Shown here in pieces: positions 1,343-20,600 of a stretch of DNA of 64,000 nt. A model generated the notes under the pieces. The model was not told where the DNA came from, searched no databases, and saw nothing but the letters and a program-made list of their open reading frames with translations. The DNA comes from Oscillospiraceae bacterium (GTDB lineage: Bacteria > Bacillota > Clostridia > Monoglobales > WRAG01): positions 19,826-83,825 of the forward strand of contig WRAG01000004.1 in the NCBI GenBank assembly GCA_009780345.1, written 5' to 3'. Position 1 is the stretch's first letter. Each line of letters begins with the position of its first letter. The position numbers and the translations under genes were made by a program.

Positions 1343-1435
1343 TTTGTAAAGGTTGGGAAACGACTTTACGGATGTTTGTAAATGATTGATAGGTTTACAA
1401 ATAAATTACCGATAGCGCCGATTTGGCGCTATCGG
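1343..1435. promoter_or_regulatory. Candidate recombinase binding/res-like region
   Basis: TTTGTAAA at 1343 and 1375 and inverted TTTACAAA at 1394. Perfect 11-bp inverted repeat CCGATAGCGCC-gattt-GGCGCTATCGG (1409-1435) just upstream of the likely TTG start of the resolvase. Confidence 0.35.
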
Positions 1436-2074
1436 GGAAGGGGGTGTTGCAAATTGAAAAACAAAGTATTTGCTTATGCGAGAGTAAGCACGAAGGAACA
1501 AAACCTTGACCGACAGTTGAAAGCGTTTATTGATTTAGGAATTGACGAGCGCGATATAATCGTTGACAAGGAAAGCGGCAAAGACTTCAATCGTCAAAAT
1601 TATTTGGCATTACGAAATAATATGTTGCGAATGGATGACATTCTTTATATTAAATCCCTTGACCGTCTATCTCGCAACAAAGCCGACATAAAGGAAGAAT
1701 TGGAATACTTTAAGGCGCATAATATCCGCTTGAAAGTGCTTGACCTACCGACCACCCTAATGGAACTACCCGAAGGACAAGAGTGGATTTTTGAGATGGT
1801 AAATAATATCTTGATTGAAGTTTTGGGAACAATTGCGGAACAAGAGCGGGTGACTATCAAGCAACGACAAGCTGAGGGGATAGCCGCCGCGAAGTCCAAA
1901 GGTAAACATCTTGGCAGACCTCCCATAGAATACCCAGCAAACTGGCGCGAGGTTTATTTTTATTGGAAAAGCGGAACGATTACAGCAACGGCAGCAATGT
2001 CGATGATGAACTTAACTCGCTCCACATTTTACAAAATGTTAAATCAATATGAAAATGGAAAGGTGAAATTATGA
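1382..2074 (+). CDS. Small serine recombinase (resolvase/invertase family)
   Basis: N-terminal catalytic block VFAYARVSTKEQNLDRQ, then SLDRLSRN and a C-terminal HTH (TATAAMSMMNLTRSTFYK). The likely true start is TTG at 1454, after GGGGG. Confidence 0.9.
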   Translation: MIDRFTNKLPIAPIWRYRGRGCCKLKNKVFAYARVSTKEQNLDRQLKAFIDLGIDERDIIVDKESGKDFNRQNYLALRNNMLRMDDILYIKSLDRLSRNKADIKEELEYFKAHNIRLKVLDLPTTLMELPEGQEWIFEMVNNILIEVLGTIAEQERVTIKQRQAEGIAAAKSKGKHLGRPPIEYPANWREVYFYWKSGTITATAAMSMMNLTRSTFYKMLNQYENGKVKL

Positions 2075-3234
2075 CTGATTTTAGAACTGAAAAATTGAAT
2101 AGCACTCTCAAAACTTTCGGCATTCGTGGTGAAATCGAATCCGTTTCCTATGGTGCGAGGATTAGTAAATATGTGGTTAAAATTGACCCGCAACAAAAGA
2201 TTGAGCCACTGATTAGGCTTGCGGCAAATATAGGTTGTGCATTTGGTTGTCCTAACTCTGTGAGGATTTCAGGGATTGAAGGGGTGGAACACGCAGTAGG
2301 AATCGAAATCCCTAATCCGACAAGTCGGACGATTTATTTGCGAGAATCACTCAAGTCAAAAGAGTTTAAGGAGTCGGAATCTCCGACATCGTTTGTCGTT
2401 GGCGAGAATGTGGAGGGTAAACCTGTTGTTGCAGACGTTGCCAAAATGCCACACTTACTTATTGGCGGCACAGTTGGCGCGGGAAAATCCGTATTTTTGA
2501 ACGGACTGGTAACAAGCATACTATACAAAGCAACGCCGGAGGAAGTTAAATTTTTGATGATTGACCCGAAGCGAATCGAGATGGCGCAATATCGAAATGT
2601 TCCTCATTTACTTGCACCGATTATCACCGATTGCAAAGCGGCAATGTTGGCGTTGTCTTGGATTGCTGACGAGATGGATTTTCGGTATGAATTGTGTGAA
2701 GTTTACGGCGTTCGGGACTTTGGGCGTTACAATGCGAAGATGAAAAAGGAAGGGCTTGACCCGCTCCCGCGAATCGTTGTTGTGATTGACGAATTATCGG
2801 AGCTTATGATGTCATCGGAGAGTCGTTTCAACGGGAATTTGCAAATACGCAACGAACTTGAAATGCTGATTGCTCGAATTGCTCAAAAATCACGCGCCGC
2901 GGGAATCCACCTGATAATCGCAACGCAAAGACCGTCAAAGCAAGTCGCAACAGGCTTGATAAAAGACAATCTGCCGAGCCGAGTTGCGTTCACTGTTGCG
3001 GACGGCGTGGCTTCACGAATAATTCTTGATGAGTTGGGCGCGGAACGCTTGCTTGGACAAGGCGATATGCTATTTAAACCAGTCGGTAGCAGGGTTGAGC
3101 GGCTTCAAGGGGCGTACATTGACGATGACGAGATTGAATATTTGGTTGACCGTATCAGCGAGGGCGTGAAAAGAAACTACAACGCCGACTTGATGGCGAA
3201 ACTTTTCCCAGAGCGCGTAAAAGTGTCGGCATAA
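2071..3234 (+). CDS. FtsK/SpoIIIE-family DNA translocase (MGE transfer/segregation ATPase)
   Basis: Walker A GGTVGAGKS, then MIDPKRIEMAQYRNVPHLL, Walker B VVVIDELSELM and IHLIIATQRPS..LPSRVAF. ATGA overlap with the resolvase gene. Confidence 0.85.
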   Translation: MTDFRTEKLNSTLKTFGIRGEIESVSYGARISKYVVKIDPQQKIEPLIRLAANIGCAFGCPNSVRISGIEGVEHAVGIEIPNPTSRTIYLRESLKSKEFKESESPTSFVVGENVEGKPVVADVAKMPHLLIGGTVGAGKSVFLNGLVTSILYKATPEEVKFLMIDPKRIEMAQYRNVPHLLAPIITDCKAAMLALSWIADEMDFRYELCEVYGVRDFGRYNAKMKKEGLDPLPRIVVVIDELSELMMSSESRFNGNLQIRNELEMLIARIAQKSRAAGIHLIIATQRPSKQVATGLIKDNLPSRVAFTVADGVASRIILDELGAERLLGQGDMLFKPVGSRVERLQGAYIDDDEIEYLVDRISEGVKRNYNADLMAKLFPERVKVSA

Positions 3235-3667: not shown

Positions 3668-3970
3668 TTGCACGGCTTACAGTTTATACGAAATCAGTTC
3701 GGCATTTCCTTGAAGGATTTGGCTGAACAATTAGGCATTTCTGCACAGTCAATTAACGCTTGGGAAGCGGAAATAAAACCTATCCCTGCCGCAAGGTTGG
3801 AAAAACTGACGGAAATTTTCGGGCTTGACGGAAAATACTTTGTGCCGGACATCAGCGCAGAGTTGCAGATTTTGGTTCGGATTGACTTGTTGTTTCAGTC
3901 GTTGCCGGACGAATGGCGGGACGAGGCGTTAACGATGATTAGGAAGCGAATGACGGAGGGCGAAAAATGA
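3668..3970 (+). CDS. XRE-family helix-turn-helix regulator
   Basis: ISLKDLAEQLGISAQSINAWEAEIKPIPAARLEKLTEIFG is a typical Cro/C1 HTH. TTG start after GAGAGGAG. Confidence 0.8.
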   Translation: MHGLQFIRNQFGISLKDLAEQLGISAQSINAWEAEIKPIPAARLEKLTEIFGLDGKYFVPDISAELQILVRIDLLFQSLPDEWRDEALTMIRKRMTEGEK

Positions 3971-4677
3971 ACATTGAAAAAAACAAAGCTGATTGGTTGG
4001 AATGCTTTGAAACGAAGAACGCAGAAGTAGCATATAAAATTATTGAAAACTGTCTTATGCCTAATTATAATGAATTATATGGCGAATGGTTTACGAATCG
4101 CAGTCGAGACGACATAGAGTTGTTAGGTAAAGTATTTGAATATGAGGACATTTATTTTACTGATATGACATTCAAGGACGAGGAGTTTCAAAGAGCTTTG
4201 TTGATATGTCAAGACGAGAACAGGAACGATGTTAATTATTCTGACGAGTTGTTTGATTCGTTAAGTGTATCATATGGGGACTGGCGGTTCTATGTTGCAG
4301 ATTTAGATGGTATAGGTGGTTCTGTAAATTATTTCAAGCGAGAAATGCGCGTCAACACGGAGAGTAAAGACGATATTTCATTAATTTTACACGAAATGAT
4401 ACATATTTACGAATTGACATTACAGAACCGCTATCCTATATTTGCGGAGTATTTGATAATCCAATTATACAACAAATTGAAACCGCTGATTGAAAATTTA
4501 GATGAAAAAATAACTCTAAACTCACACCCTTTATTGTCGGGCGATATGTTTAGGGCGGGAAATAATCACGGCACATTGTTCTTATTAAAGAGTCTTGACT
4601 TGGATTTAAGATTGAAGTTGTCGCTGGGAACGGTGTTTGGTTATGACCGAGAAGGATATATGAAAGACGAAGCGTAA
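3967..4677 (+). CDS. HExxH zinc-metallopeptidase-like protein (SprT/ImmA-type candidate)
   Basis: LILHEMIHIYE (HEMIH at nt 4390-4404) resembles the SprT/Spartan LLHEMIHAY motif. 4-nt overlap with the upstream XRE gene, as in regulator/protease pairs. Confidence 0.5.
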   Translation: MNIEKNKADWLECFETKNAEVAYKIIENCLMPNYNELYGEWFTNRSRDDIELLGKVFEYEDIYFTDMTFKDEEFQRALLICQDENRNDVNYSDELFDSLSVSYGDWRFYVADLDGIGGSVNYFKREMRVNTESKDDISLILHEMIHIYELTLQNRYPIFAEYLIIQLYNKLKPLIENLDEKITLNSHPLLSGDMFRAGNNHGTLFLLKSLDLDLRLKLSLGTVFGYDREGYMKDEA

Positions 4678-4690
4678 GGAGGACGAGATT

Positions 4691-5971
4691 TTGGCGAACA
4701 CTGGTGTGACGAATGCGGGAGCGGCGAATTTGGAAAACAAAGAATCGGTTTACATTGTGTCGGTTCAAGCGAAAGATTTATGGATTGCAAATAATTTGCT
4801 TGCCGATGAAGGAAAGTCGAAAATAAAAGGATATATAACAAGGGATAAAAAGGGGACGTTTTACAACAAATATATCGCAACTCTTGACTATTCTTTGGAT
4901 AGGATTCAATTGGAAAGAATATGCAATCAAGACGGTGTTCAATTTTCGTTCCCGAATCAAAAAAGCGAAAAACACAAACTGAAGCATTATTGCGACAAGG
5001 TAATTAGTGTTGATTTTGATTTAACCGTAAAAGATTATAATAAAAGCGGAGATGTTTTTGTCAAATATGGCTACTGTTACAACAAGGCGGATTACAAAAA
5101 AATAGACAAAAACGATTGTATTCATATAGAAAAAGACGAAAACGGAAACGATGCCTTGATAGGAATTAAGTTGAATACCAAAGTTAAAAATCCTCTATCC
5201 CTTGAAGAACTGAAAAGACTTGGTGAATATTTCACGCTCAAAGAAATTCAACCGAAAGAAAAAGAGGGTAAGAAAAAGGAAAAGCCGTATTTCGTATATA
5301 CCACAACGAACAAAGACTCGAAACGCTTGTATAATATCAAAGCCATCAGAGACGGACTTTATACAAAAGGGTTTGTTTGTAACGGAAGGACATATGTTAG
5401 GTGGAAAAGAAGTGCGGGGAAATCCCGTGTAGGAAAATGTCTTTTTATAGACAAGACGCTTTACAAAAAAATTCGCAAATGGGAACTGTGTGGATTAAAA
5501 GTCAAGGAAAATGACAAAATTGATTTAGCAGCTTTTGAGTCATATATTGCATTATCTAATTCCAGTATAATAGATACTTTGCACATTAAAAAGGAAAACA
5601 TTTTAATCATTCCCGAATATGAGAGCATCTTCAAAGAAAAGGTTATTGCCGTAGGCAAGGACAATAAAAAAAGACTTGTTGCGGAAGAAAAAACATTGGA
5701 AATAAAGAATAATATTTGGGATGGACAGAGTTTGATTGACCCATTGTTGATGAAACAATATAAGAAATACGGGAGTGTTTTGTTGAGAAACCGATTTTAT
5801 AAAAGTTGCGCCTTCACTTGTGATATTCAAAAATTCTTCAAGGATAAAGGCATTGCAGATGTCTCGCAACTTAACGGGTTCACATTGGCAACTGAAATCA
5901 AGGATATTAAATACATAACGACTGAAAGCAGTATAAAATATTCAAAGTTTGGAAGTAAAAAAAGTGGTTGA
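4691..5971 (+). CDS. YonO/RdRP-like two-barrel RNA polymerase, N-terminal part (first DPBB)
   Basis: TTG start after AAGGAGGA. Motifs KSRVGKCLF, IWDGQSLI and LLRNRFYKSCAF match my recollection of RdRP-family blocks (aRhGQcFS, sDGhGkIS, QIRxGGxKG). Very AT-rich. Confidence 0.6.
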   Translation: MANTGVTNAGAANLENKESVYIVSVQAKDLWIANNLLADEGKSKIKGYITRDKKGTFYNKYIATLDYSLDRIQLERICNQDGVQFSFPNQKSEKHKLKHYCDKVISVDFDLTVKDYNKSGDVFVKYGYCYNKADYKKIDKNDCIHIEKDENGNDALIGIKLNTKVKNPLSLEELKRLGEYFTLKEIQPKEKEGKKKEKPYFVYTTTNKDSKRLYNIKAIRDGLYTKGFVCNGRTYVRWKRSAGKSRVGKCLFIDKTLYKKIRKWELCGLKVKENDKIDLAAFESYIALSNSSIIDTLHIKKENILIIPEYESIFKEKVIAVGKDNKKRLVAEEKTLEIKNNIWDGQSLIDPLLMKQYKKYGSVLLRNRFYKSCAFTCDIQKFFKDKGIADVSQLNGFTLATEIKDIKYITTESSIKYSKFGSKKSG

Positions 5972-7827
5972 ATAATTTGGACAATAAGTTCGGAATCGTC
6001 AAGCACGATAAACCCGCAAAATACTTCGATGGGCGGTTTGTAAAATTAAATTATCAAATGTTAAATTCACTACAATCATATTACGACTTCAAGAAACCGA
6101 CTGAACAATTAGTGAGAAATGACGGAGATTTGGGCGAGCTTATGTTTCCTACTTGGGAATATTCGTTTGGATTATATCACGACCCAAAAGCTATAAAATA
6201 CCACGTCAATTTGAAAAACGAAATCGAGTATGATGATGTCGATTATGACACCGAAACCAAAAACGATTTGATATTCAAATTACTAAATATAAACGAAAAT
6301 TTCCCATTAAGTAACCTATATCACGAATTAAAGGTTGAGATTGTACGCGCATTTATAAACAGTATTAGAAAAGAAGGTAGGGTGATTGTCGAGGGAACAC
6401 ATGCCACCGTTTGTGCGAATCCTGTTGAAATGCTTTATCACTCTATAATGAAGAAAAACGGAAAAGGTAGTCAGTTTGATGGCACAAGCAAAATCGGCGT
6501 TGGTAATGTTTATTCCGAGCGGTTCAAGTTCGATAAAGTTATATTTGCCGGAAGAAGCCCGTTTATCACAATGGGAAATATATGGTTGCCGACCAATAAG
6601 GATAATTCCGAAATCAAGGAATACATGAACCCGACAGACCAAATATTATATTACAATGCCATAAACGAGAACAGTCAGCAACTAAATAATGGTATGGATA
6701 ATGACGGTGATGCCTGTTTAATTACAAACGACAGAGCGATGTTGGCGTTAGCCGGAAAACATTATGGTAAATTTTTAGTTCCGACAATGGACGAAAAAAG
6801 TATGGCGGCGGAAAACGAAATCTACCACTACACCGATTTAGACAAATCAAAATTGGATTCAAAAACCAAGGATAATTATATCGGCGAAATTGTAAATTTG
6901 AGCCAAGAGCTTAATAGTTGGTTGTGGCACAACCTCAACGAAAATCCCGAATACGACTACACACAACTTTACCTCGATATTTCACGCCTTGCGGTGTTGT
7001 CGGGGGCGGCTATTGATTCAGCCAAGAAAAATTTTGACATTAGTTTTGCGGCGGAAATAAAACGCATACGCAAGAGGAATGACGATTTAATCAAGGAAAC
7101 TAAACCCAAATTCTTCAAACACATTAAAATGCAAAGGAAGAAAAAGGCAGAGTTTTCACCCGATGAAATTGAAAAGTTCGAGGAACTTATTGAAGAATCG
7201 GAAGCTGACATCAAGAGTGGAAAAATATGTGTTCTTGATTATTTTGCCGAAAGCGACGAGGATATAGGCTTGATTAAACGTTTGGATAAATATATAAAGT
7301 TCTGCAACAAGAAAAATCCGTTTGAATATGTAAACACAACTATGGATTATATTGTAAGCATTACAAACAAGTTGAATTATGGATTGTCAAGAAACAACAA
7401 CGAAAATGTGTTACAAGTTAGGGATTTGATTGTTGACGTTGATTCACACAGCGTTGACAATGACGAAAAGAAAATCATTGAAAAAATATGCGAAGAAATT
7501 GAGAACGTTCGCAATGACATTGGGAAATTGTGGGGTATTAAGAAAAACAAGGAACGAGACCGGGCAGAACGGAAATTGCAAATCGAAAACAAGAAGGAAG
7601 AATTGATAACCTTCTGTAATACCCAAAAACTCAACCGCGATATATTGATTGGCTTGCTTGCAAAAATGGACGATAAACAAATATGTAGCAAGGGTAAGAA
7701 ATTGGGATTTTATTTTCAAATTTTACTCAACATTGAAGTCGATGGCATTGATGGCATAAATAAAATGATAGATTTTTTTGATTCACGACTTGCAAAAATG
7801 CCCGATTTTGCCCAAAACAACGCCTAA
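5968..7827 (+). CDS. YonO/RdRP-like two-barrel RNA polymerase, C-terminal part (catalytic DPBB, DNDGD)
   Basis: FVKLNYQMLNSL, GRSPFITMGNI and, ~45 aa later, MDNDGDACLITND (nt 6697-6711), matching RNPxxHPGD...DxDGD..hxWD of RdRP/YonO polymerases. The frame is -1 relative to the upstream ORF and open from 5959. Confidence 0.65.
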   Translation: MNNLDNKFGIVKHDKPAKYFDGRFVKLNYQMLNSLQSYYDFKKPTEQLVRNDGDLGELMFPTWEYSFGLYHDPKAIKYHVNLKNEIEYDDVDYDTETKNDLIFKLLNINENFPLSNLYHELKVEIVRAFINSIRKEGRVIVEGTHATVCANPVEMLYHSIMKKNGKGSQFDGTSKIGVGNVYSERFKFDKVIFAGRSPFITMGNIWLPTNKDNSEIKEYMNPTDQILYYNAINENSQQLNNGMDNDGDACLITNDRAMLALAGKHYGKFLVPTMDEKSMAAENEIYHYTDLDKSKLDSKTKDNYIGEIVNLSQELNSWLWHNLNENPEYDYTQLYLDISRLAVLSGAAIDSAKKNFDISFAAEIKRIRKRNDDLIKETKPKFFKHIKMQRKKKAEFSPDEIEKFEELIEESEADIKSGKICVLDYFAESDEDIGLIKRLDKYIKFCNKKNPFEYVNTTMDYIVSITNKLNYGLSRNNNENVLQVRDLIVDVDSHSVDNDEKKIIEKICEEIENVRNDIGKLWGIKKNKERDRAERKLQIENKKEELITFCNTQKLNRDILIGLLAKMDDKQICSKGKKLGFYFQILLNIEVDGIDGINKMIDFFDSRLAKMPDFAQNNA

Positions 7828-7984: not shown

Positions 7985-8173
7985 ATGACCCAAGAATCTG
8001 TACGGAATAGGTTATGTAAGTACATTGAAGAAAAAGGCGTGAAGTTAGTTTTTATTTCTCGCAAAGTCGGAGTCCCCGATTACCTTATGGCGAAGTTCAA
8101 GACCGCAAAGCGGGAACTATGGAACGAATCACTCTTGGAGCTGGATAAATTTCTTAGTGCCGAAAATTACTAA
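7985..8173 (+). CDS. Small putative DNA-binding (HTH-like) protein
   Basis: 62 aa with RBS AAGGAGA. The segment KLVFISRKVGVPDYLMAKFKT is HTH-like. Confidence 0.45.
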   Translation: MTQESVRNRLCKYIEEKGVKLVFISRKVGVPDYLMAKFKTAKRELWNESLLELDKFLSAENY

Positions 8174-8275: not shown

Positions 8276-8872
8276 GTGAACAAAATGAAAAACGATATAT
8301 TTGAACGGATAAAAGAAGAAATCACGATTGAGGATATTTTTAATTATTATGGAATCGAGATAAACCGAAATCGCAAAGCGTTGTGTTGTTGGCACGATGA
8401 TAATTCACCGAGTATGTCCGTGAACTTGGTTGCTGGTTTATGGTATTGCCACGTCTGCTGCGAGGGCGGGGACATTTTCTCATTTGTCGCGCTGAAAGAG
8501 AGTTGCACACCGTATCAGGCGGCGCAAATCCTTGACGAGCGGCACGGGTTGGATTTGATAGCCACGACCACAAGACCGACTCGAAAACAAGTTAGCGACC
8601 ACCAAGCGAAAAAGGAAGCGTTGGCGCGATTCAAGGAAGATTTGCGGAGCGTTGAGAACAAGTTGAGCGACTACTTCCTCTTATTCCACCGAGCAACCAT
8701 TGACCCGCCGGACAACTTTGACGAAATGCCGCCGTTATATGAAATAGCATTGAAAGAGAGAAGTTATACCGAATATTTGCTTGACTTTTTAGCGTTTGGC
8801 AATTTCGAGGACCGGGCGCACGGCTACAAGATGGCGAAACAATATTTACAAAGATTGGAGGCGGCAATTTGA
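8276..8872 (+). CDS. CHC2 (DnaG-type) zinc-finger protein, replication initiation partner
   Basis: CCWHDDNSPSMSV..LWYCHVCCEGGDIFSF is the CHC2 primase zinc-finger pattern. The likely start is ATG at 8285. Confidence 0.7.
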   Translation: MNKMKNDIFERIKEEITIEDIFNYYGIEINRNRKALCCWHDDNSPSMSVNLVAGLWYCHVCCEGGDIFSFVALKESCTPYQAAQILDERHGLDLIATTTRPTRKQVSDHQAKKEALARFKEDLRSVENKLSDYFLLFHRATIDPPDNFDEMPPLYEIALKERSYTEYLLDFLAFGNFEDRAHGYKMAKQYLQRLEAAI

Positions 8873-10425
8873 CCCAAGCGGAACAATATGAAAAATTAGT
8901 GGAAATTGACGAAGAATATAAAATTGAAGATGTCGCCGACAAAATGAACGACATTCTTGAAAATGCAACAGCAGATTCAATATTGGAAGAAATTGTTTTT
9001 AAAAGTTTGTATTTATTGGACGGATTCGAGCGTGAGAAGTTCAAAGTTAAATTGCTCAAAAAGGCGGCGGACTTGCGCGTTAAGAAATTGTTTGAACAGC
9101 TTTTGCAGGCATATTGCAAGCAAGAATTTTCTAACGAAACAGACCCCGACTGGTATGAGGACGGAGACATTGATGAGGTTGCTTTTTGCGGAGCGTTTGC
9201 GGAACGGCACAATATCAAATGTATCAATAATCAGTTTTACGATATTAACGGTAGCATTACTGACGGTGATATTGAAAGCAAAATTTACAAAGACATCACG
9301 CCATATGTTAAGCAGGGCGTAAGTAGACAAGTGCGGGCGTTGCTCTTTGCGCTGAAAAATGCGACCTTCGCAGAACAACCAAGAGTTCGTGAGGACGAAA
9401 TCTATTTGGAAAACGGCATACTTCGCACGGACGGGAAATTCGAGAACGACAAAGAATTTTGTTTGAATAGGTTGAATGTGGAATACAACCCGAATGTTGC
9501 GGAGCCTGAAAAGTGGTTGAAGTTCCTTGATGATTTGTTAAGCGCGGACGATATTTTGACACTTCAAGAGTTTTTCGGATATTGTCTTGTGCCGACCACA
9601 AGGGCGCAAAAGGGATTATTCTTGACCGGAAATGGCGGTGAGGGTAAGAGCGTTGTCGGCTCTGTGTTCAAGTCGATTTTCGGAAATGCTATGATTAGTG
9701 GTTCGTTGCAAGATTTAGAAAACAATCGGTTCGCAATGGCAAGTTTAGAAAACAAGTTGTTATTCGTTGACGATGATTTAAGTGTCGAAGCTCTGAAAGA
9801 TACGCGTAACATCAAGAAGATTGTTACGGCGCAGACAACACAGCAGATTGAGCGGAAAGGTGTTCAACAATACGATGCGATGATTTACAGTCGCATACTC
9901 TGTTTTGGAAACGGAATCTTACGGAGCTTGTACGACAATTCGGACGGATTTTTCCGCAGGCAAATTATAATCAAAGTTAAAGATAAGCCCGAAAGAGTTG
10001 ACAATAAATCTATGGTTGATGAGTTGGTTGCCCAGAAAGACGGAATATTCCTGTGGGCGTTCGAGGGTTTGCAACGGCTCATAGACAACAAGTATGAGTT
10101 TACTATTTCCGAGGAAGCGGAACGCAATCTCAAAGAGTCCCGCGAGGAAGCCATAAATATTATTTCATTTATGGACGAAAGTGGTTGTGTTGAACTTGAT
10201 AAAGAGTCCGAAATATCGTCAAAGATTTTATGTCAGCTATACCGTGAATGGTGCGGGGACAATGAGGAAATCGCCTTGAAATCGAAAACGGTTATAGGTC
10301 ACTTGAAAAATTGTGAGGGCAAATATAACATTGAGTACAGCAAGAACATCAGCGGAGGCGTTCGCGGATTCAAGGGTATTCGACAAGTGAAACAAGTTAG
10401 AGATGTGTTTTGTTCGATTGGTTAG
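8869..10425 (+). CDS. P4/D5-family primase-helicase (SF3 NTPase)
   Basis: Walker A LTGNGGEGKS, Walker B LLFVDDD and a downstream QQIERKG..block typical of phage/plasmid primase P4-type C-terminal NTPase. 4-nt overlap with the CHC2 gene. Confidence 0.8.
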   Translation: MTQAEQYEKLVEIDEEYKIEDVADKMNDILENATADSILEEIVFKSLYLLDGFEREKFKVKLLKKAADLRVKKLFEQLLQAYCKQEFSNETDPDWYEDGDIDEVAFCGAFAERHNIKCINNQFYDINGSITDGDIESKIYKDITPYVKQGVSRQVRALLFALKNATFAEQPRVREDEIYLENGILRTDGKFENDKEFCLNRLNVEYNPNVAEPEKWLKFLDDLLSADDILTLQEFFGYCLVPTTRAQKGLFLTGNGGEGKSVVGSVFKSIFGNAMISGSLQDLENNRFAMASLENKLLFVDDDLSVEALKDTRNIKKIVTAQTTQQIERKGVQQYDAMIYSRILCFGNGILRSLYDNSDGFFRRQIIIKVKDKPERVDNKSMVDELVAQKDGIFLWAFEGLQRLIDNKYEFTISEEAERNLKESREEAINIISFMDESGCVELDKESEISSKILCQLYREWCGDNEEIALKSKTVIGHLKNCEGKYNIEYSKNISGGVRGFKGIRQVKQVRDVFCSIG

Positions 10426-14521: not shown

Positions 14522-15274
14522 TTGAAAATACAAGAAAATATCTTAAACATTTTAGCGGAATGTAAAATCGAAGGTAACATTTTATTTTTGCCACCGGAAC
14601 AACTTGACAGGAATACATACGTTGCCGTTAACAAGTGCCTTGAAAATATCGGCGGTAAGTGGAATCAAAAAGAAAAGGGACATATTTTTGATTATGACCC
14701 GACAGAGGCGTTTGACAACCTTTTGTTGACTGGTGAAACGGAAGATATGAAAAAGACGTTTCAATTCTTCCCAACACCAAGGAAGGTTGCGGAAATAGTT
14801 TGCGATATGGCAGAATTATCAACTGCCCAAAACATATTAGAGCCGAGTTGTGGCAAAGGTGATTTGGCTGATGTGATTTACGAGCGCAATCAATCATTGA
14901 TATGCGTTGAAATCAATGAAGATATGAAAAAACTTCTTGACGAAAAAGCTTACGGCGATGTGGTTGTTTATACTGACTTCTTAAAGTTTGAGTCTGACGA
15001 GGCGAAGTCGTTTAACCGCATTGTGATGAACCCGCCGTTTAGCAAACAACAGGACATAGACCATATTTTACACGCTTATAACATATTGCAAGTTGGCGGT
15101 GTTTTAGTTTCAGTTATGAGTGTATCACCGTTTTTCAGAACTAACAAAAAATCCGTTGAGTTTCGTCAATGGTTGGAGCAGAATAATGCCGAAATAGTTG
15201 ATGTCAAAGCCGGGGAGTTTAAGGAGAGCGGGACACTCATACCTACTAAAATTATAAAGGTTGTAAAATCATAA
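14522..15274 (+). CDS. Orphan N6-adenine DNA methyltransferase
   Basis: SAM-binding motif I ILEPSCGKGDL and catalytic motif IV IVMNPPFS. No adjacent restriction gene. Confidence 0.8.
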   Translation: MKIQENILNILAECKIEGNILFLPPEQLDRNTYVAVNKCLENIGGKWNQKEKGHIFDYDPTEAFDNLLLTGETEDMKKTFQFFPTPRKVAEIVCDMAELSTAQNILEPSCGKGDLADVIYERNQSLICVEINEDMKKLLDEKAYGDVVVYTDFLKFESDEAKSFNRIVMNPPFSKQQDIDHILHAYNILQVGGVLVSVMSVSPFFRTNKKSVEFRQWLEQNNAEIVDVKAGEFKESGTLIPTKIIKVVKS

Positions 15275-16892: not shown

Positions 16893-18200
16893 ATGTCAAC
16901 TTTATTGGGTGAAATTTCCAAAGACAAAATTATTATGGCAAGCGACTCCCGGTTAGCCGTTGAAGAAAATGGTGTTGTTTATGCGGTACACGATGATGCA
17001 AAAAAACTATTTATCATTGATGACAGTTTTGTCTTTTGGGGTTCGGGTAAAATTATGATTATTGATGAGTTAGTCAAAAAAATCAAGCAAAGCGGTTTTC
17101 GGGATGTAAGAAAGATTGCGGCGTTAGCTCAAGATATTATTGATGCTTACAAGAAACTGGGCGGTAAGGCAAGTGACGAAAATGGATTCCTTCAATTCAC
17201 AATCGGTCAGTTCAAAAATGGCGAACCGTATGTGTATCTTAGTGGGGATAAGTATGGTTGGCAAATTATTGAGCAAAAGGGCGAAGATGAGCATATTGGA
17301 TTTGGTGGTGGTTGGGGTGGACACATAACGATTGCCGAGTATTACAAAGATGCCGAGTATTCAAGGAACAATTTTGACGAAGTGGCACAGACCGCTTTTG
17401 ATTTAGCAAGTGATGTTCACAGTGGAGGCACTCTAACTATTGTCACTATGACCAAAGGCGGCATAACCGAAAAACGATTTGATATTGACGATAGCGGAAA
17501 AGATGTCAAGTGGTTGCCTCAAAATGATATTACAAACGGACATTGTCGGGCAAGGGATTTGTTTTTGGGTCCCGACCAAGCAAGTGTTCTGTCAGTCATA
17601 AACGGTATAAGTCAAATTGGCGGAGATGGGTTGAATTTGCGAGGTATAAGGATATTCAGCGAAACAACCAATGCGCTTGTAAATAATTGGACTGGCAACG
17701 GAACTCATTATATGAGTGTCGGTGCGGGAACACCAACTATGCCGAGCGGGATATTTTATAGGCTTGGCACAATCATTAATGGTGTTGCGGCTATGGAGAT
17801 GGCTACAGACGGAACGCTTAGAATACGTGGGGATTTAATCGCTGGTAGGGTATACGCTTCACAACCAACCGCCGACCAGCTCGCAAACGACCCCGCAGGC
17901 ACAATTAGGGGCGTTAATATTATTGGCGGAAGCATTACATCCGATTCTACTGTAAATGTTACTACCAACGCAACAATCGGAAATAGATTGAACATGACAT
18001 CAACAGGATTAGCTGACGGCATTCACTTTACCTCAACAAATGCTTCAATCAGTCTAAACGATGAAAACACAGTAAGAATTGCGCCTTTTTTGAGTACGCA
18101 AAATTTATTTACAGAAGGCTTAGCGGGTTTAGGGTATTCCGGCTTGACAGCGGCGATTACGGATTTGAGAAACAGGATTATTGCGTTAGAGAACGCATAA
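16893..18200 (+). CDS. Proteasome-beta/HslV-like (Ntn-hydrolase) domain fused to fibre-like C-terminal region, paralog 2
   Basis: MS|TLLGEISKDKIIMASDSR (Thr3 as candidate N-terminal nucleophile, Asp17-like), DDAKKLF (Lys33-like), GFGGGWGG and DVHSGGTLTIVTMTKGG. The C-terminal repeats are paralogous to 15343..16581. Confidence 0.6.
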   Translation: MSTLLGEISKDKIIMASDSRLAVEENGVVYAVHDDAKKLFIIDDSFVFWGSGKIMIIDELVKKIKQSGFRDVRKIAALAQDIIDAYKKLGGKASDENGFLQFTIGQFKNGEPYVYLSGDKYGWQIIEQKGEDEHIGFGGGWGGHITIAEYYKDAEYSRNNFDEVAQTAFDLASDVHSGGTLTIVTMTKGGITEKRFDIDDSGKDVKWLPQNDITNGHCRARDLFLGPDQASVLSVINGISQIGGDGLNLRGIRIFSETTNALVNNWTGNGTHYMSVGAGTPTMPSGIFYRLGTIINGVAAMEMATDGTLRIRGDLIAGRVYASQPTADQLANDPAGTIRGVNIIGGSITSDSTVNVTTNATIGNRLNMTSTGLADGIHFTSTNASISLNDENTVRIAPFLSTQNLFTEGLAGLGYSGLTAAITDLRNRIIALENA

Positions 18201-18262: not shown

Positions 18263-18466
18263 ATGAGTAAATCAAAGTGGAAAAAAGTCATTGTTTGCGT
18301 TATTATAGCGTTGTTTTTCACGTTTCCGTTACCGTTTTTGTTTGACACTTCTGCAAACTTGATTGATATTTTGGGCGCAATCGTTATGTGGCAAGCTGTA
18401 ATTTTTGTTCCGATAATTGCAATAGGAGCAATAATTCTTTTGATTAAATTGATAACCGAGAATTAA
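18263..18466 (+). CDS. Small membrane protein (2 predicted TM helices)
   Basis: 67 aa with KSKWKK then two hydrophobic stretches. RBS AAAGGAA. Confidence 0.5.
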   Translation: MSKSKWKKVIVCVIIALFFTFPLPFLFDTSANLIDILGAIVMWQAVIFVPIIAIGAIILLIKLITEN

Positions 18467-18943: not shown

Positions 18944-19177
18944 ATGCAAGAAACAAAAATTTTATCATTAGAAGATTATCGCACAGGTGAAACCGCCTTG
19001 TCTGAATACCGAGATTTATTAAACATAGACGATTTATCAAAAATATTTCAAGTACATAAAAACACCATATACAAGCATATCAAAAACGGAGATTTCGGCA
19101 AGCCTATCCAAATTGGACGCGCTTATAAAATTCCAAAAAATTTTATTATCAAGAAAATATTTTGTTCTCCCGCTTGA
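18944..19177 (+). CDS. xis: Excisionase-type HTH (MerR-like/HTH_17) protein
   Basis: LNIDDLSKIFQVHKNTIYKHIKNGDFGKPIQIGRAYKIPK, directly upstream of the integrase. Confidence 0.7.
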   Translation: MQETKILSLEDYRTGETALSEYRDLLNIDDLSKIFQVHKNTIYKHIKNGDFGKPIQIGRAYKIPKNFIIKKIFCSPA

Positions 19178-19256: not shown

Positions 19257-20414
19257 ATGACAGAAGTTAAAGGAATCGTACAGGCTAAGAAGGGCAGACC
19301 CAACTATTACATCGTTTTGTATTACATTGACGAGACCACAGGGCAACCGAAAAGACCGTGGATTCCAACAGATATTCCGGTTGCCGGAAACAACAAGCGT
19401 AAAGCAAACGAAAAATTGAAGGAGGTTTTGGAAGAACACAACCGAAACAAGGTTGATTTGAGTAAAAATGTATTGTTTACGGTATTTATCAAGGAATGGT
19501 TGGAGTTTATGAAGCCGTCAATTGATATAGTCACATATGACGATTATAAACTGAAAATCTATAATCAAATCGTTCCGTTCTTCGAGCCGAAACAATTAAG
19601 AGTCCGGGACATAACGCCGTTACATATTCAACAATACATCAATCACAAACTCAAGTCCGTTTCGCCAAACACGGTGCGTAAGCATTTGTGGAATATATCA
19701 AAATGTCTTGATTCCGCCGTTAAGCAAAATTTGATTGCATTTAACCCCGTAAAAGCCATCGAAATGCCAAAACCCATTAAGTCCAACCGAGCGCAGTTTT
19801 ACAACGAACGGCAAATTGACGAACTTTTGTCCGTTATCAAGGGTGATTCAATCGAGGGAATTGTGTTGTTTGCGACCTTTTACGGTATGCGGAGAAGTGA
19901 GATATGTGGCTTGAAGTGGAACGCTATTGACTTTGAAAACAAGTCGTTTCAAATCAAGCACACAGTTGTTCAAATGGGAACGGCAATGCACAAGAAAGAC
20001 TCCACAAAAAATGACAGTTCTAATTCGTCAATGCCTATGCCCGACATTATCATTGATATGTTGAAGAAGTTGAAATCACGGCAAGCGCAAAATCGGTTGT
20101 TGCAACCCAACGACTATATTGACGAAGGTTATGTGTTTGTGCGAGATACGGGACAACTAATCCCGCCAAACTACATCACAAAGCACTTCAAAAAAGTCTT
20201 GGCGAGAAACAATATGCCTGTTATCAACTTTCACGATTTACGACACAGTTCGGCAAGCTACCTTCACTATTTGGGATTCTCTATGAAGGATATTCAAACT
20301 TGGTTAAGACACGGAGACATCGGGACAACTATGAATATCTACACGCACATAGATATGTCCGCGAAACGGAACATTGCAGACACTCTAAACGAGAGATTCC
20401 GAAAATTCAGTTAG
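19257..20414 (+). CDS. int: Tyrosine site-specific integrase
   Basis: N-terminal SAM-like core-binding region. Catalytic blocks YGMRRSEICGLKW and HDLRHSSASYL..LRHGDIGTTMNIYTH (R..HxxR..Y). Confidence 0.9.
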   Translation: MTEVKGIVQAKKGRPNYYIVLYYIDETTGQPKRPWIPTDIPVAGNNKRKANEKLKEVLEEHNRNKVDLSKNVLFTVFIKEWLEFMKPSIDIVTYDDYKLKIYNQIVPFFEPKQLRVRDITPLHIQQYINHKLKSVSPNTVRKHLWNISKCLDSAVKQNLIAFNPVKAIEMPKPIKSNRAQFYNERQIDELLSVIKGDSIEGIVLFATFYGMRRSEICGLKWNAIDFENKSFQIKHTVVQMGTAMHKKDSTKNDSSNSSMPMPDIIIDMLKKLKSRQAQNRLLQPNDYIDEGYVFVRDTGQLIPPNYITKHFKKVLARNNMPVINFHDLRHSSASYLHYLGFSMKDIQTWLRHGDIGTTMNIYTHIDMSAKRNIADTLNERFRKFS

Positions 20415-20526
20415 TCGATGTTTTTGTAGACGAAATTGTAGACATTACCAGTTATTAGGCGATTTTGAGGACTGCAACAAAAATGCTGACACACCGCAAA
20501 CGCAGATGTATCAGCACTTTCATTCT

Positions 20527-20600
20527 TGGAGGCACCACCCGGATTTGAACCGGGGATAAAGGAGTTGCAGTCCTCTGCCTTACCACTTGGCTATGGCGCC
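20527..20600 (-). tRNA. tRNA-Cys (GCA)
   Basis: Reverse complement is GGCGCCATAGCCAAGTGGTAAGGCAGAGGACTGCAACTCCTTTATCCCCGGTTCAAATCCGGGTGGTGCCTCCA. Cloverleaf with CTGCAAC anticodon loop, U73 discriminator and encoded CCA. Confidence 0.9.

Follow-up and report, generated by a model that had tools for sequence, protein, structure and literature searches.

We analysed a 64,000-nucleotide stretch of contig WRAG01000004.1 (hereafter the window) from the metagenome-assembled genome (MAG) of an Oscillospiraceae bacterium, the left part of which belongs to an integrative island. Positions 4691-7827, within this island, hold two adjacent open reading frames (ORFs) of 426 and 619 residues, which the NCBI annotation of the MAG lists as two proteins. 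We propose that they very probably represent one gene, which encodes a single-chain RNA polymerase of the YonO family with two double-psi-beta-barrels, about 1045 residues in length if read continuously. ORF1 bears the motifs KSRVGKCLF (residues 244-252), IWDGQSLI (residues 342-349) and LLRNRFYKSCAF (residues 364-375), whereas ORF2 bears FVKLNYQMLNSL (residues 24-35), GRSPFITMGNI (residues 195-205) and MDNDGDACLITND (residues 243-255), the last enclosing a DNDGD at nucleotides 6697-6711. The two ORFs and all six motifs had been picked out in the original prediction, which a model made from the DNA letters, and each lies exactly where it was placed. The AT-richness remarked on there is also evident, with a GC content of 0.34-0.36 across ORF1, ORF2 and the preceding gene of an HExxH protein, compared to 0.45-0.47 in the flanking genes.

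The relationship claimed in the original prediction, to YonO of Bacillus phage SPbeta and to the RNA-dependent RNA polymerases (RdRPs) of eukaryotes, is well supported, because evidence from sequences, profiles and predicted structures points to a two-barrel enzyme of this type. SPbeta YonO is a processive DNA-dependent RNA polymerase with an essential aspartate triad, and it transcribes the late operon of the phage (Forrest et al. 2017, PMC5467207). Among the PHROGs profiles, phrog_8308 (847 positions) matches ORF1 at 2e-39 over profile positions 3-330. A tblastn search against annotated phages matched YonO-sized proteins of SPbeta-like phages, in addition to proteins annotated as “RNA-dependent RNA polymerase” in Psychrobacillus phage Perkons and Thomasclavelia phage TR-TP1. 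BLASTP against a YonO-type reference, the SPbetaL8 protein that is 93.7% identical to SPBc2 yonO, gave a colinear alignment, in which residues 214-420 of ORF1 pair with residues 121-320 of the reference. In pairwise alignment, KLNYQMLNSL of ORF2 pairs with KLTYQMLQTL of the reference, and RSP...MDNDGDACLITND with RSP...FDNDGDKALIISD, with the triad of ORF2 facing the FDNDGDK of the YonO type. Moreover, hhalign comparison of the family alignments against a YonO-type alignment gave a probability of 99.8% (E 4-7e-28) over ~610 columns, covering both halves.

Neither the window ORFs nor the repaired protein described below had a match in sequence searches of Pfam, NCBIfam and PDB, so the family was identified by way of PHROGs, BLAST against phage proteins, profile-profile comparison and structure. 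The Pfam RdRP profile PF05183, suggested earlier as a check, gave a divided answer. The window ORFs and the repaired 1045-residue protein have no match to it at E <= 10, whereas its gathering threshold of 23.8 bits is passed by the homologues P0004 and P0009 (25 bits) and by the protein of phage TR-TP1 (69 bits). SPbeta-type YonO itself also falls below this threshold.

According to Ruprich-Robert and Thuriaux (PMC2919709), eight residues are invariant in all two-barrel polymerases, which in QDE-1 are D709, R738, K743, R962, P964, D1007, D1009 and D1011. They correspond to D344, R366 and K371 of ORF1, and to R196, P198, D244, D246 and D248 of ORF2. As all eight are kept in 61 of 61 aligned family members, the motif matches are more than chance. 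Their spacing is also similar: R366 and K371 are five residues apart, the same as R738 and K743 of QDE-1, and R196/P198 precede D244 by 48 residues, where ~45 were expected. The predicted metal-binding DxDxD triad of the β′-like barrel is present as D244-N-D246-G-D248.

The AlphaFold2 models of ORF1 and ORF2 have a predicted local distance difference test score (pLDDT) of 85.4 and 81.0, and a predicted template modelling score of 0.80 and 0.79, respectively. A Foldseek search with the ORF1 model revealed plant RDR2 as the only significant matches among solved structures, at a probability of 1.00. With the ORF2 model, the only significant matches were QDE-1 and RDR2, again at a probability of 1.00 and with E-values down to 1e-6, followed by a weak tail that consists nearly entirely of the largest subunits (Rpb1/A′) of multisubunit polymerases. 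In a library of viral structures, the top match was a 1048-residue phage “RdRP” (1e-22). In the comparison of models put forward with the original prediction, both halves match QDE-1/RDR2 at the level of the overall fold.

The enzyme family is already known and abundant, which leaves the setting and the frameshift as the unusual features here. It has been recognised since Iyer et al. 2003, and relatives in caudoviruses and transposons were already noted in two reviews (PMC2919709 and PMC7824862). Matches number at least 1915 in the protein collection; a further search of species-representative genomes from gut Clostridia gave 243, and IMG/VR gave 407, the contigs there being up to 165 kb long. 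A literature match to “YonO” on pCP13 plasmids was discarded as a false match to an author's name.

Several features of these relatives deserve description in their own right. Their polymerase gene is often interrupted by 280-1050+ nucleotides between the codons that match D244 and D246 of ORF2, as seen in 22 of the 80 IMG/VR loci (among L093-L168) and five of the 80 genome loci (L020, L048, L076, L079 and L085), and some of the interrupted genes have a second break ~64 residues after the triad. Rfam group I introns were recognised in L076 (96, 75 and 59 bits) and, with 72 bits, in L098 at the second of the two sites; the ~1-kb insert at the triad has no Rfam match at the gathering threshold. 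A comparable arrangement is annotated in the SPbeta relatives Goe11, Goe14, phi3T and SPR, as yonO_1, a hypothetical protein and yonO_2. In addition, the DNA a few kb downstream of the polymerase holds tRNA gene clusters and Rfam matches to the small RNA “drum” (68 bits; 12431-12542 of L095 and 12832-12943 of L098) in several IMG/VR relatives.

ORF2 lies in the -1 frame relative to ORF1, and the frame breaks at a run of seven adenines (A7), where the junction reads AGT AAA AAA AGT GGT TGA. The frame of ORF2 is open from 5959, and ORF1 stops at the TGA of 5969-5971. Addition of one A (A8) restores a single ORF of 1045 residues, ...KFGSKKKWLNNLDNKFGIVKHDK..., and in this reading ...IKYSKFGSKKKWLNNLDNKFGIVKHDK... 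pairs without a gap with ...IKYLKFSTWDEWLNNLYPNFGVVKHDK... of the closest relative in the annotated collection. At least 90% of the family retain the tryptophan just upstream of the TTG of ORF2, and the TTG itself is the next leucine codon of the conserved motif W-L-x-x-L. The two nearest relatives in the phage collection are single ORFs of 956 and 966 residues. Among the best 120 protein matches, 119 are 784-1037 residues long, the exception being the 619-residue cluster of ORF2 itself. Furthermore, residues 405-445 are spanned by one tblastn segment in a single frame in every one of the 160 relative loci fetched (80 genomes and 80 viral contigs), and the samples also contain a sister gene, a single ORF of 1061 residues with a continuous junction, ...KFGSLEKWIENIDHTFGIVKHDKP....

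Because the conserved frame continues across the junction, and the relatives and the sister gene are unbroken there, the split is most likely specific to this lineage and results from a one-nucleotide change in a homopolymer. The division of the enzyme between its two barrels, which the original prediction had taken for an architecture, is therefore not supported as an evolved arrangement of two genes.

The repaired gene has no other stop in its 1045 codons, and all 47 + 39 family-invariant columns are kept in the window gene, so the frameshift is either recent or tolerated. The A7 in place of A8 produces the two ORFs, and its consequence may be one of three: (a) a recent inactivating mutation; (b) rescue at a low level, through -1 slippage on the A-run, whether ribosomal or transcriptional; or (c) two chains, the second translated after re-initiation at the UUG overlapping the UGA. 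We place recent inactivation slightly ahead of the other two.

A number of observations weigh against the reading of the locus as one YonO-type gene with a recent or tolerated frameshift. Of the 61 aligned proteins, that of the window diverges most, and its ORF2 part keeps 70% of the positions conserved in at least 90% of the family, compared to 80-82% in the nearest sisters. This lower retention is a weak hint of relaxed constraint, as in a pseudogene, or may simply reflect a deep lineage, the two being confounded. Pattern and protein scans of metagenome_contigs and a protein scan of viral_contigs found no A8 or A9 allele and no close relative. The context of A7 in the frame of ORF1 (AGU AAA AAA AGU) is not a canonical X XXY YYZ heptamer, and the hairpin predicted directly 3′ of A7 lacks a spacer, with a modest z of -2.4 against shuffles. 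Finally, an activity dependent on DNA, rather than on RNA, is suggested by the analogy with YonO alone.

Programmed recoding or a phase-variable switch, in which the full-length polymerase is made only by a -1 slip, by stutter of RNA polymerase or by replication slippage that restores A8, is unlikely; if true, it would gate expression of the polymerase of the island. Runs of AAA lysine codons are known slippery sequences, and the segment in which a shift would be productive is just 10 nucleotides (5959 to 5969), centred on A7, with the predicted hairpin next to it. Moreover, the gene is otherwise intact, and A7 is the sole allele in three assemblies. However, the heptamer and the hairpin have the shortcomings just described, and the break at A7 is absent from every relative examined, so nothing shows selection for recoding. 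In addition, ORF1 contains three further A7 runs, which means that a random indel in one of them is to be expected in such an AT-rich and lysine-rich gene, and no A8 or A6 variants were found in the collections searched.

It is improbable that the two ORFs encode a functional two-subunit enzyme, in which ORF2 is made by termination and re-initiation at the overlapping UUG and the two chains assemble like β and β′. The break does lie between the barrels in a linker of low confidence, comprising the C-terminal end of ORF1 and the first eight residues of ORF2 (pLDDT <60), and the catalytic and family-invariant residues are intact in both halves. TTG starts are common in this stretch, and re-initiation at ORF2 is conceivable because other gene pairs of the island also have 4-nucleotide overlaps of start and stop codons, one of them again a TTGA (8869-8872). 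By contrast, a start at this TTG, as a leucine codon of W-L-x-x-L, would lose the conserved tryptophan, and ORF2 has no good Shine-Dalgarno sequence, only a GGAAG 12 nucleotides upstream. No relative is split at this site, be it among the 160 loci, the 119 near-full-length proteins or the sister gene, and there is therefore no evidence of selection for the two-ORF arrangement. The interruptions found elsewhere in the family resemble introns, with a single chain presumably restored.

A sequencing or assembly artefact, with a true sequence of A8 and an intact gene, would suit a homopolymer, the classic site of indel errors, and the perfect fit of the repaired frame to the family, but it is very improbable in view of the agreement among assemblies, the other homopolymers of the window and the missing fused protein. 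The A7 is also found in an 85.5-kb contig of ENA that is identical to the window, in a contig of the Joint Genome Institute (JGI) that differs from it at three other positions, and in the Logan assembly of SRR5215140. These three assemblies (L006, L007 and L008) come from different pipelines and may share raw data. The 18 other long homopolymers of the window, the three A7 runs of ORF1 among them, lie inside intact ORFs, and no fused protein of 1045 residues is present in a collection of 5.8 billion proteins. Because A7 recurs in three assemblies, the other homopolymers are intact and neither an A8 allele nor a fused protein was found, random error is unlikely, and the frameshift is real.

The polymerase does not travel by itself. 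The HExxH protein encoded immediately upstream has ~157 homologues of ~200-230 residues, several of which carry the SprT-like domain PF10263, whereas the HExxH protein of the window itself has no match in Pfam (including Peptidase_M78, PF06114), NCBIfam, PADLOC or PDB. Its identification as an ImmA-type protease was rejected on the lack of a Peptidase_M78 match and on the PF10263 of its homologues. Of the XRE/HExxH switch that had been placed upstream of the polymerase, the XRE-type helix-turn-helix (HTH) regulator is real, whereas the HExxH protein appears from its homologues to be SprT-like rather than a member of the ImmA/IrrE M78 family. Directly downstream of the polymerase lies an HTH-like ORF of 62 residues.

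A second element from the same samples (L178) carries, in this order, a resolvase, an HExxH homologue (33% identity) directly upstream of the intact 1061-residue polymerase, a 65-residue ORF and a YonV_C-family protein. The 62-residue and 65-residue ORFs share an identity of 32% (E 2e-11). ORFs of ~60 residues also follow the polymerase in L091 (13108-13296) and L092 (13182-13364), with an identity of 16-19%, and beside P0002 and P0003, of which P0002 belongs to a prophage that is clearly SPbeta-like, having YomN, YomW, a portal of SPP1 type and a large serine recombinase. The SprT-like HExxH family recurs beside small serine resolvases and SPbeta-family genes (YonV_C), one such copy lying at 4001-4621 of L174. 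These gene neighbourhoods indicate a conserved, AT-rich mobile module of three genes, for the HExxH protein, the polymerase and the small HTH protein. Because the module also occurs in an SPbeta-like phage from this community, a phage of that kind is the probable source from which the island obtained it, an origin that fits the distinct base composition of the module. Within 10 kb of the polymerase in the 80 genome relatives, none of 26 island proteins other than a distant integrase was found.

The coordinates of the module, of the island and of its surroundings are listed in Table 1.

Table 1. Features of the polymerase locus, the island and its surroundings. Positions refer to the window unless another contig is named; L007 is the ENA contig and L178 carries the second element from the same samples.
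Feature	Position	Strand	Description
ORF1	4691-5971	+	426 aa; predicted N-terminal polymerase part with β-like barrel; TTG start, GGAGG 8 nt upstream
ORF1 D344	5720-5722		
ORF1 R366	5786-5788		
ORF1 K371	5801-5803		
A7 homopolymer	5957-5963	+	site of the -1 frame break
ORF2	5968-7827	+	619 aa; putative TTG start; predicted β′-like barrel
ORF2 R196-S-P198	6553-6561		
ORF2 D244-N-D246-G-D248	6697-6711		catalytic
XRE-type HTH regulator	3668-3970	+	100 aa; overlaps the start of the HExxH gene by 4 nt
HExxH protein	3967-4677	+	236 aa; HEMIH at 4390-4404; SprT-like family
62-aa HTH-like ORF	7985-8173	+	directly downstream of the polymerase
Island	1-20570 (window part)		24,525 bp between att copies; starts ~4 kb upstream of the window
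attL	L007 5547-5591		
Gp49 (HigB-like) + HTH pair	L007 6057-7373	-	left end of the island; adjoins a second small HExxH protein
Resolvase	1382-2074		
FtsK/SpoIIIE	2071-3234		
Zn-ribbon primase	8276-8872		
D5/DUF5906 primase-helicase	8869-10425		
DNA methyltransferase	14522-15274		
Excisionase-like	18944-19177		
Tyrosine integrase	19257-20414		adjoins tRNA-Cys
attR	20526-20570		45-bp direct repeat identical to L007 5547-5591; 3′ part of tRNA-Cys
tRNA-Cys	20527-20600	-	
HExxH homologue of the second element	L178 10001-10618		
65-aa ORF of the second element	L178 14764-14961		

At attR, the GC content rises from 0.40 to 0.46, to host levels, and the tRNA-Cys gene is followed by host genes for an EamA transporter and a 4-alpha-glucanotransferase. 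Searches of Pfam and PHROGs gave no match to capsid, portal, terminase or tail proteins in the island, many ORFs of which have no match of any kind. The lack of visible virion genes, as originally described for this element, thus holds for the island once delimited, and the island stands in tandem with a real prophage. A PADLOC scan of the island ORFs of unknown function matched the methyltransferase alone.

Left of attL lies the end of this prophage (L007 1-5591), with a Peptidase_G2 tail-spike-like protein, a Dp1 holin, an excisionase and an integrase, the last two being 54% and 63% identical to those of the island, respectively. Because the prophage end lies directly left of attL, the two elements are, as read from the contig, integrated in tandem at tRNA-Cys. 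The island has the size (~7-25 kb), att repeats, integrase, excisionase, XRE regulators, primase and D5 helicase, and the lack of detected virion structural genes, by which phage satellites, namely phage-inducible chromosomal islands (PICIs) or P4-like elements, are recognised from their genes. Genes that hijack packaging (terS, capsid-size redirection) were not recognised in the island, where many ORFs are without a match. A helper-satellite relation of the prophage and the island is possible, the tandem prophage being circumstantial.

Some further observations concern other genes of the island. The second small HExxH protein, at the left end, has 184 residues and the motif IIHEIMHY. A 435-residue ORF (16893-18200) shows a weak N-terminal match to the proteasome beta or N-terminal-nucleophile hydrolase fold (NCBIfam TIGR03634, E 3e-5, far under the cut-off), whereas its C-terminal half is rich in repeats and ends in a short coiled coil. 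Next comes a 67-residue protein with two transmembrane segments (18263-18466). The idea that the 435-residue protein is a relative of the tail spike of the neighbouring prophage was rejected, as the two have no similarity. Overlaps of four nucleotides (TTGA or ATGA) link pairs of island genes at 2071-2074, 3967-3970, 5968-5971 and 8869-8872. The last of these joins the genes of the Zn-ribbon primase and the D5-type helicase, which many phage primases combine in a single polypeptide (PHROG 864, 1064 positions).

Among the known relatives of cellular RNA polymerases, the YonO-type enzymes are the simplest. By analogy with SPbeta YonO, an intact enzyme would serve its own element, transcribing the genes of the latter without the host polymerase; the co-oriented genes from 7985 to ~18200, downstream of the polymerase, are the likely targets. 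Its action may involve the 62-residue HTH protein, a candidate DNA-binding partner or specificity factor for polymerases of this clade. How YonO-type enzymes find their promoters is still unexplained (PMC5467207), and the HTH protein would be a concrete candidate for the missing specificity factor.

The island setting and the three-gene module are mildly new. They suggest that the polymerase module can ride on a small island without detected virion genes, beyond the large SPbeta-like phages. The picture of the enzyme family is unchanged, since the apparently naturally split enzyme is most likely a plain frameshift. Nevertheless, the break lies exactly between the two barrels, which makes this allele a ready-made construct for asking whether they work as separate chains. 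It is improbable that a satellite-like, virion-less island carries its own YonO-type module with a polymerase either gated at A7 by -1 slippage or naturally split into two chains. Were this so, the enzyme would stand, as a natural intermediate, between the single-chain two-barrel polymerases and the multisubunit ones, and the island would be the first satellite-type element with an autonomous transcription machine.

Among known systems, the virion RNA polymerase gp66 of crAss-like phage phi14:2 is likewise a two-barrel phage enzyme of the RdRP-like branch, but the structural match is faint (probability 0.47, E 0.13), and gp66 is far larger and packaged in the virion. QDE-1 and RDR2 (PDB 2J7N, 5FSW, 7Y7S, 7EU0 and 7W82) have the eight active-site invariants in common with the window protein, at a similar spacing, whereas the identity is only 10-14% and the template modelling score, normalised to the query, 0.3-0.46. 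As for the genes upstream, the succession of an XRE HTH gene and an overlapping HExxH gene resembles the ImmR/ImmA-type switches of integrative and conjugative elements and phages. Here, however, the HExxH protein is predicted to be SprT-like, and it travels with the polymerase, not with the XRE gene.

The family to which the window protein itself belongs is that of the “RNA-dependent RNA polymerases” of gut-Clostridia phages (~920-1060 residues), with an identity of 31-50% over nearly the full length. Examples are P0002, P0003, the 1061-residue ORF of L178, MT835469 and BFVD A0A8S5SZT9. Unlike the window gene, these relatives are single ORFs, and the closest of them adjoin SPbeta-like genes, including YomN, YomW, YonV_C and the SPP1-type portal.

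With SPbeta YonO, the window protein shares colinear homology over both barrels and the D-N-D-G-D, R-S-P, R-x4-K-G and D-G motifs in identical order. Both genes are located on temperate mobile elements of Firmicutes and are followed by a small gene of DNA-binding type. Nevertheless, the identity is ~25-32% in the alignable blocks, and the window protein, at 1045 residues against 835-839, is ~200 residues longer, with an extra N-terminal region and another C-terminal tail. Unlike that of SPbeta, the window gene is frameshifted, and as sequenced its two barrels are not on one polypeptide. Moreover, YonO belongs to a phage of ~130 kb with a late operon, whereas the window gene resides on an island of 24.5 kb in which no virion genes were detected.

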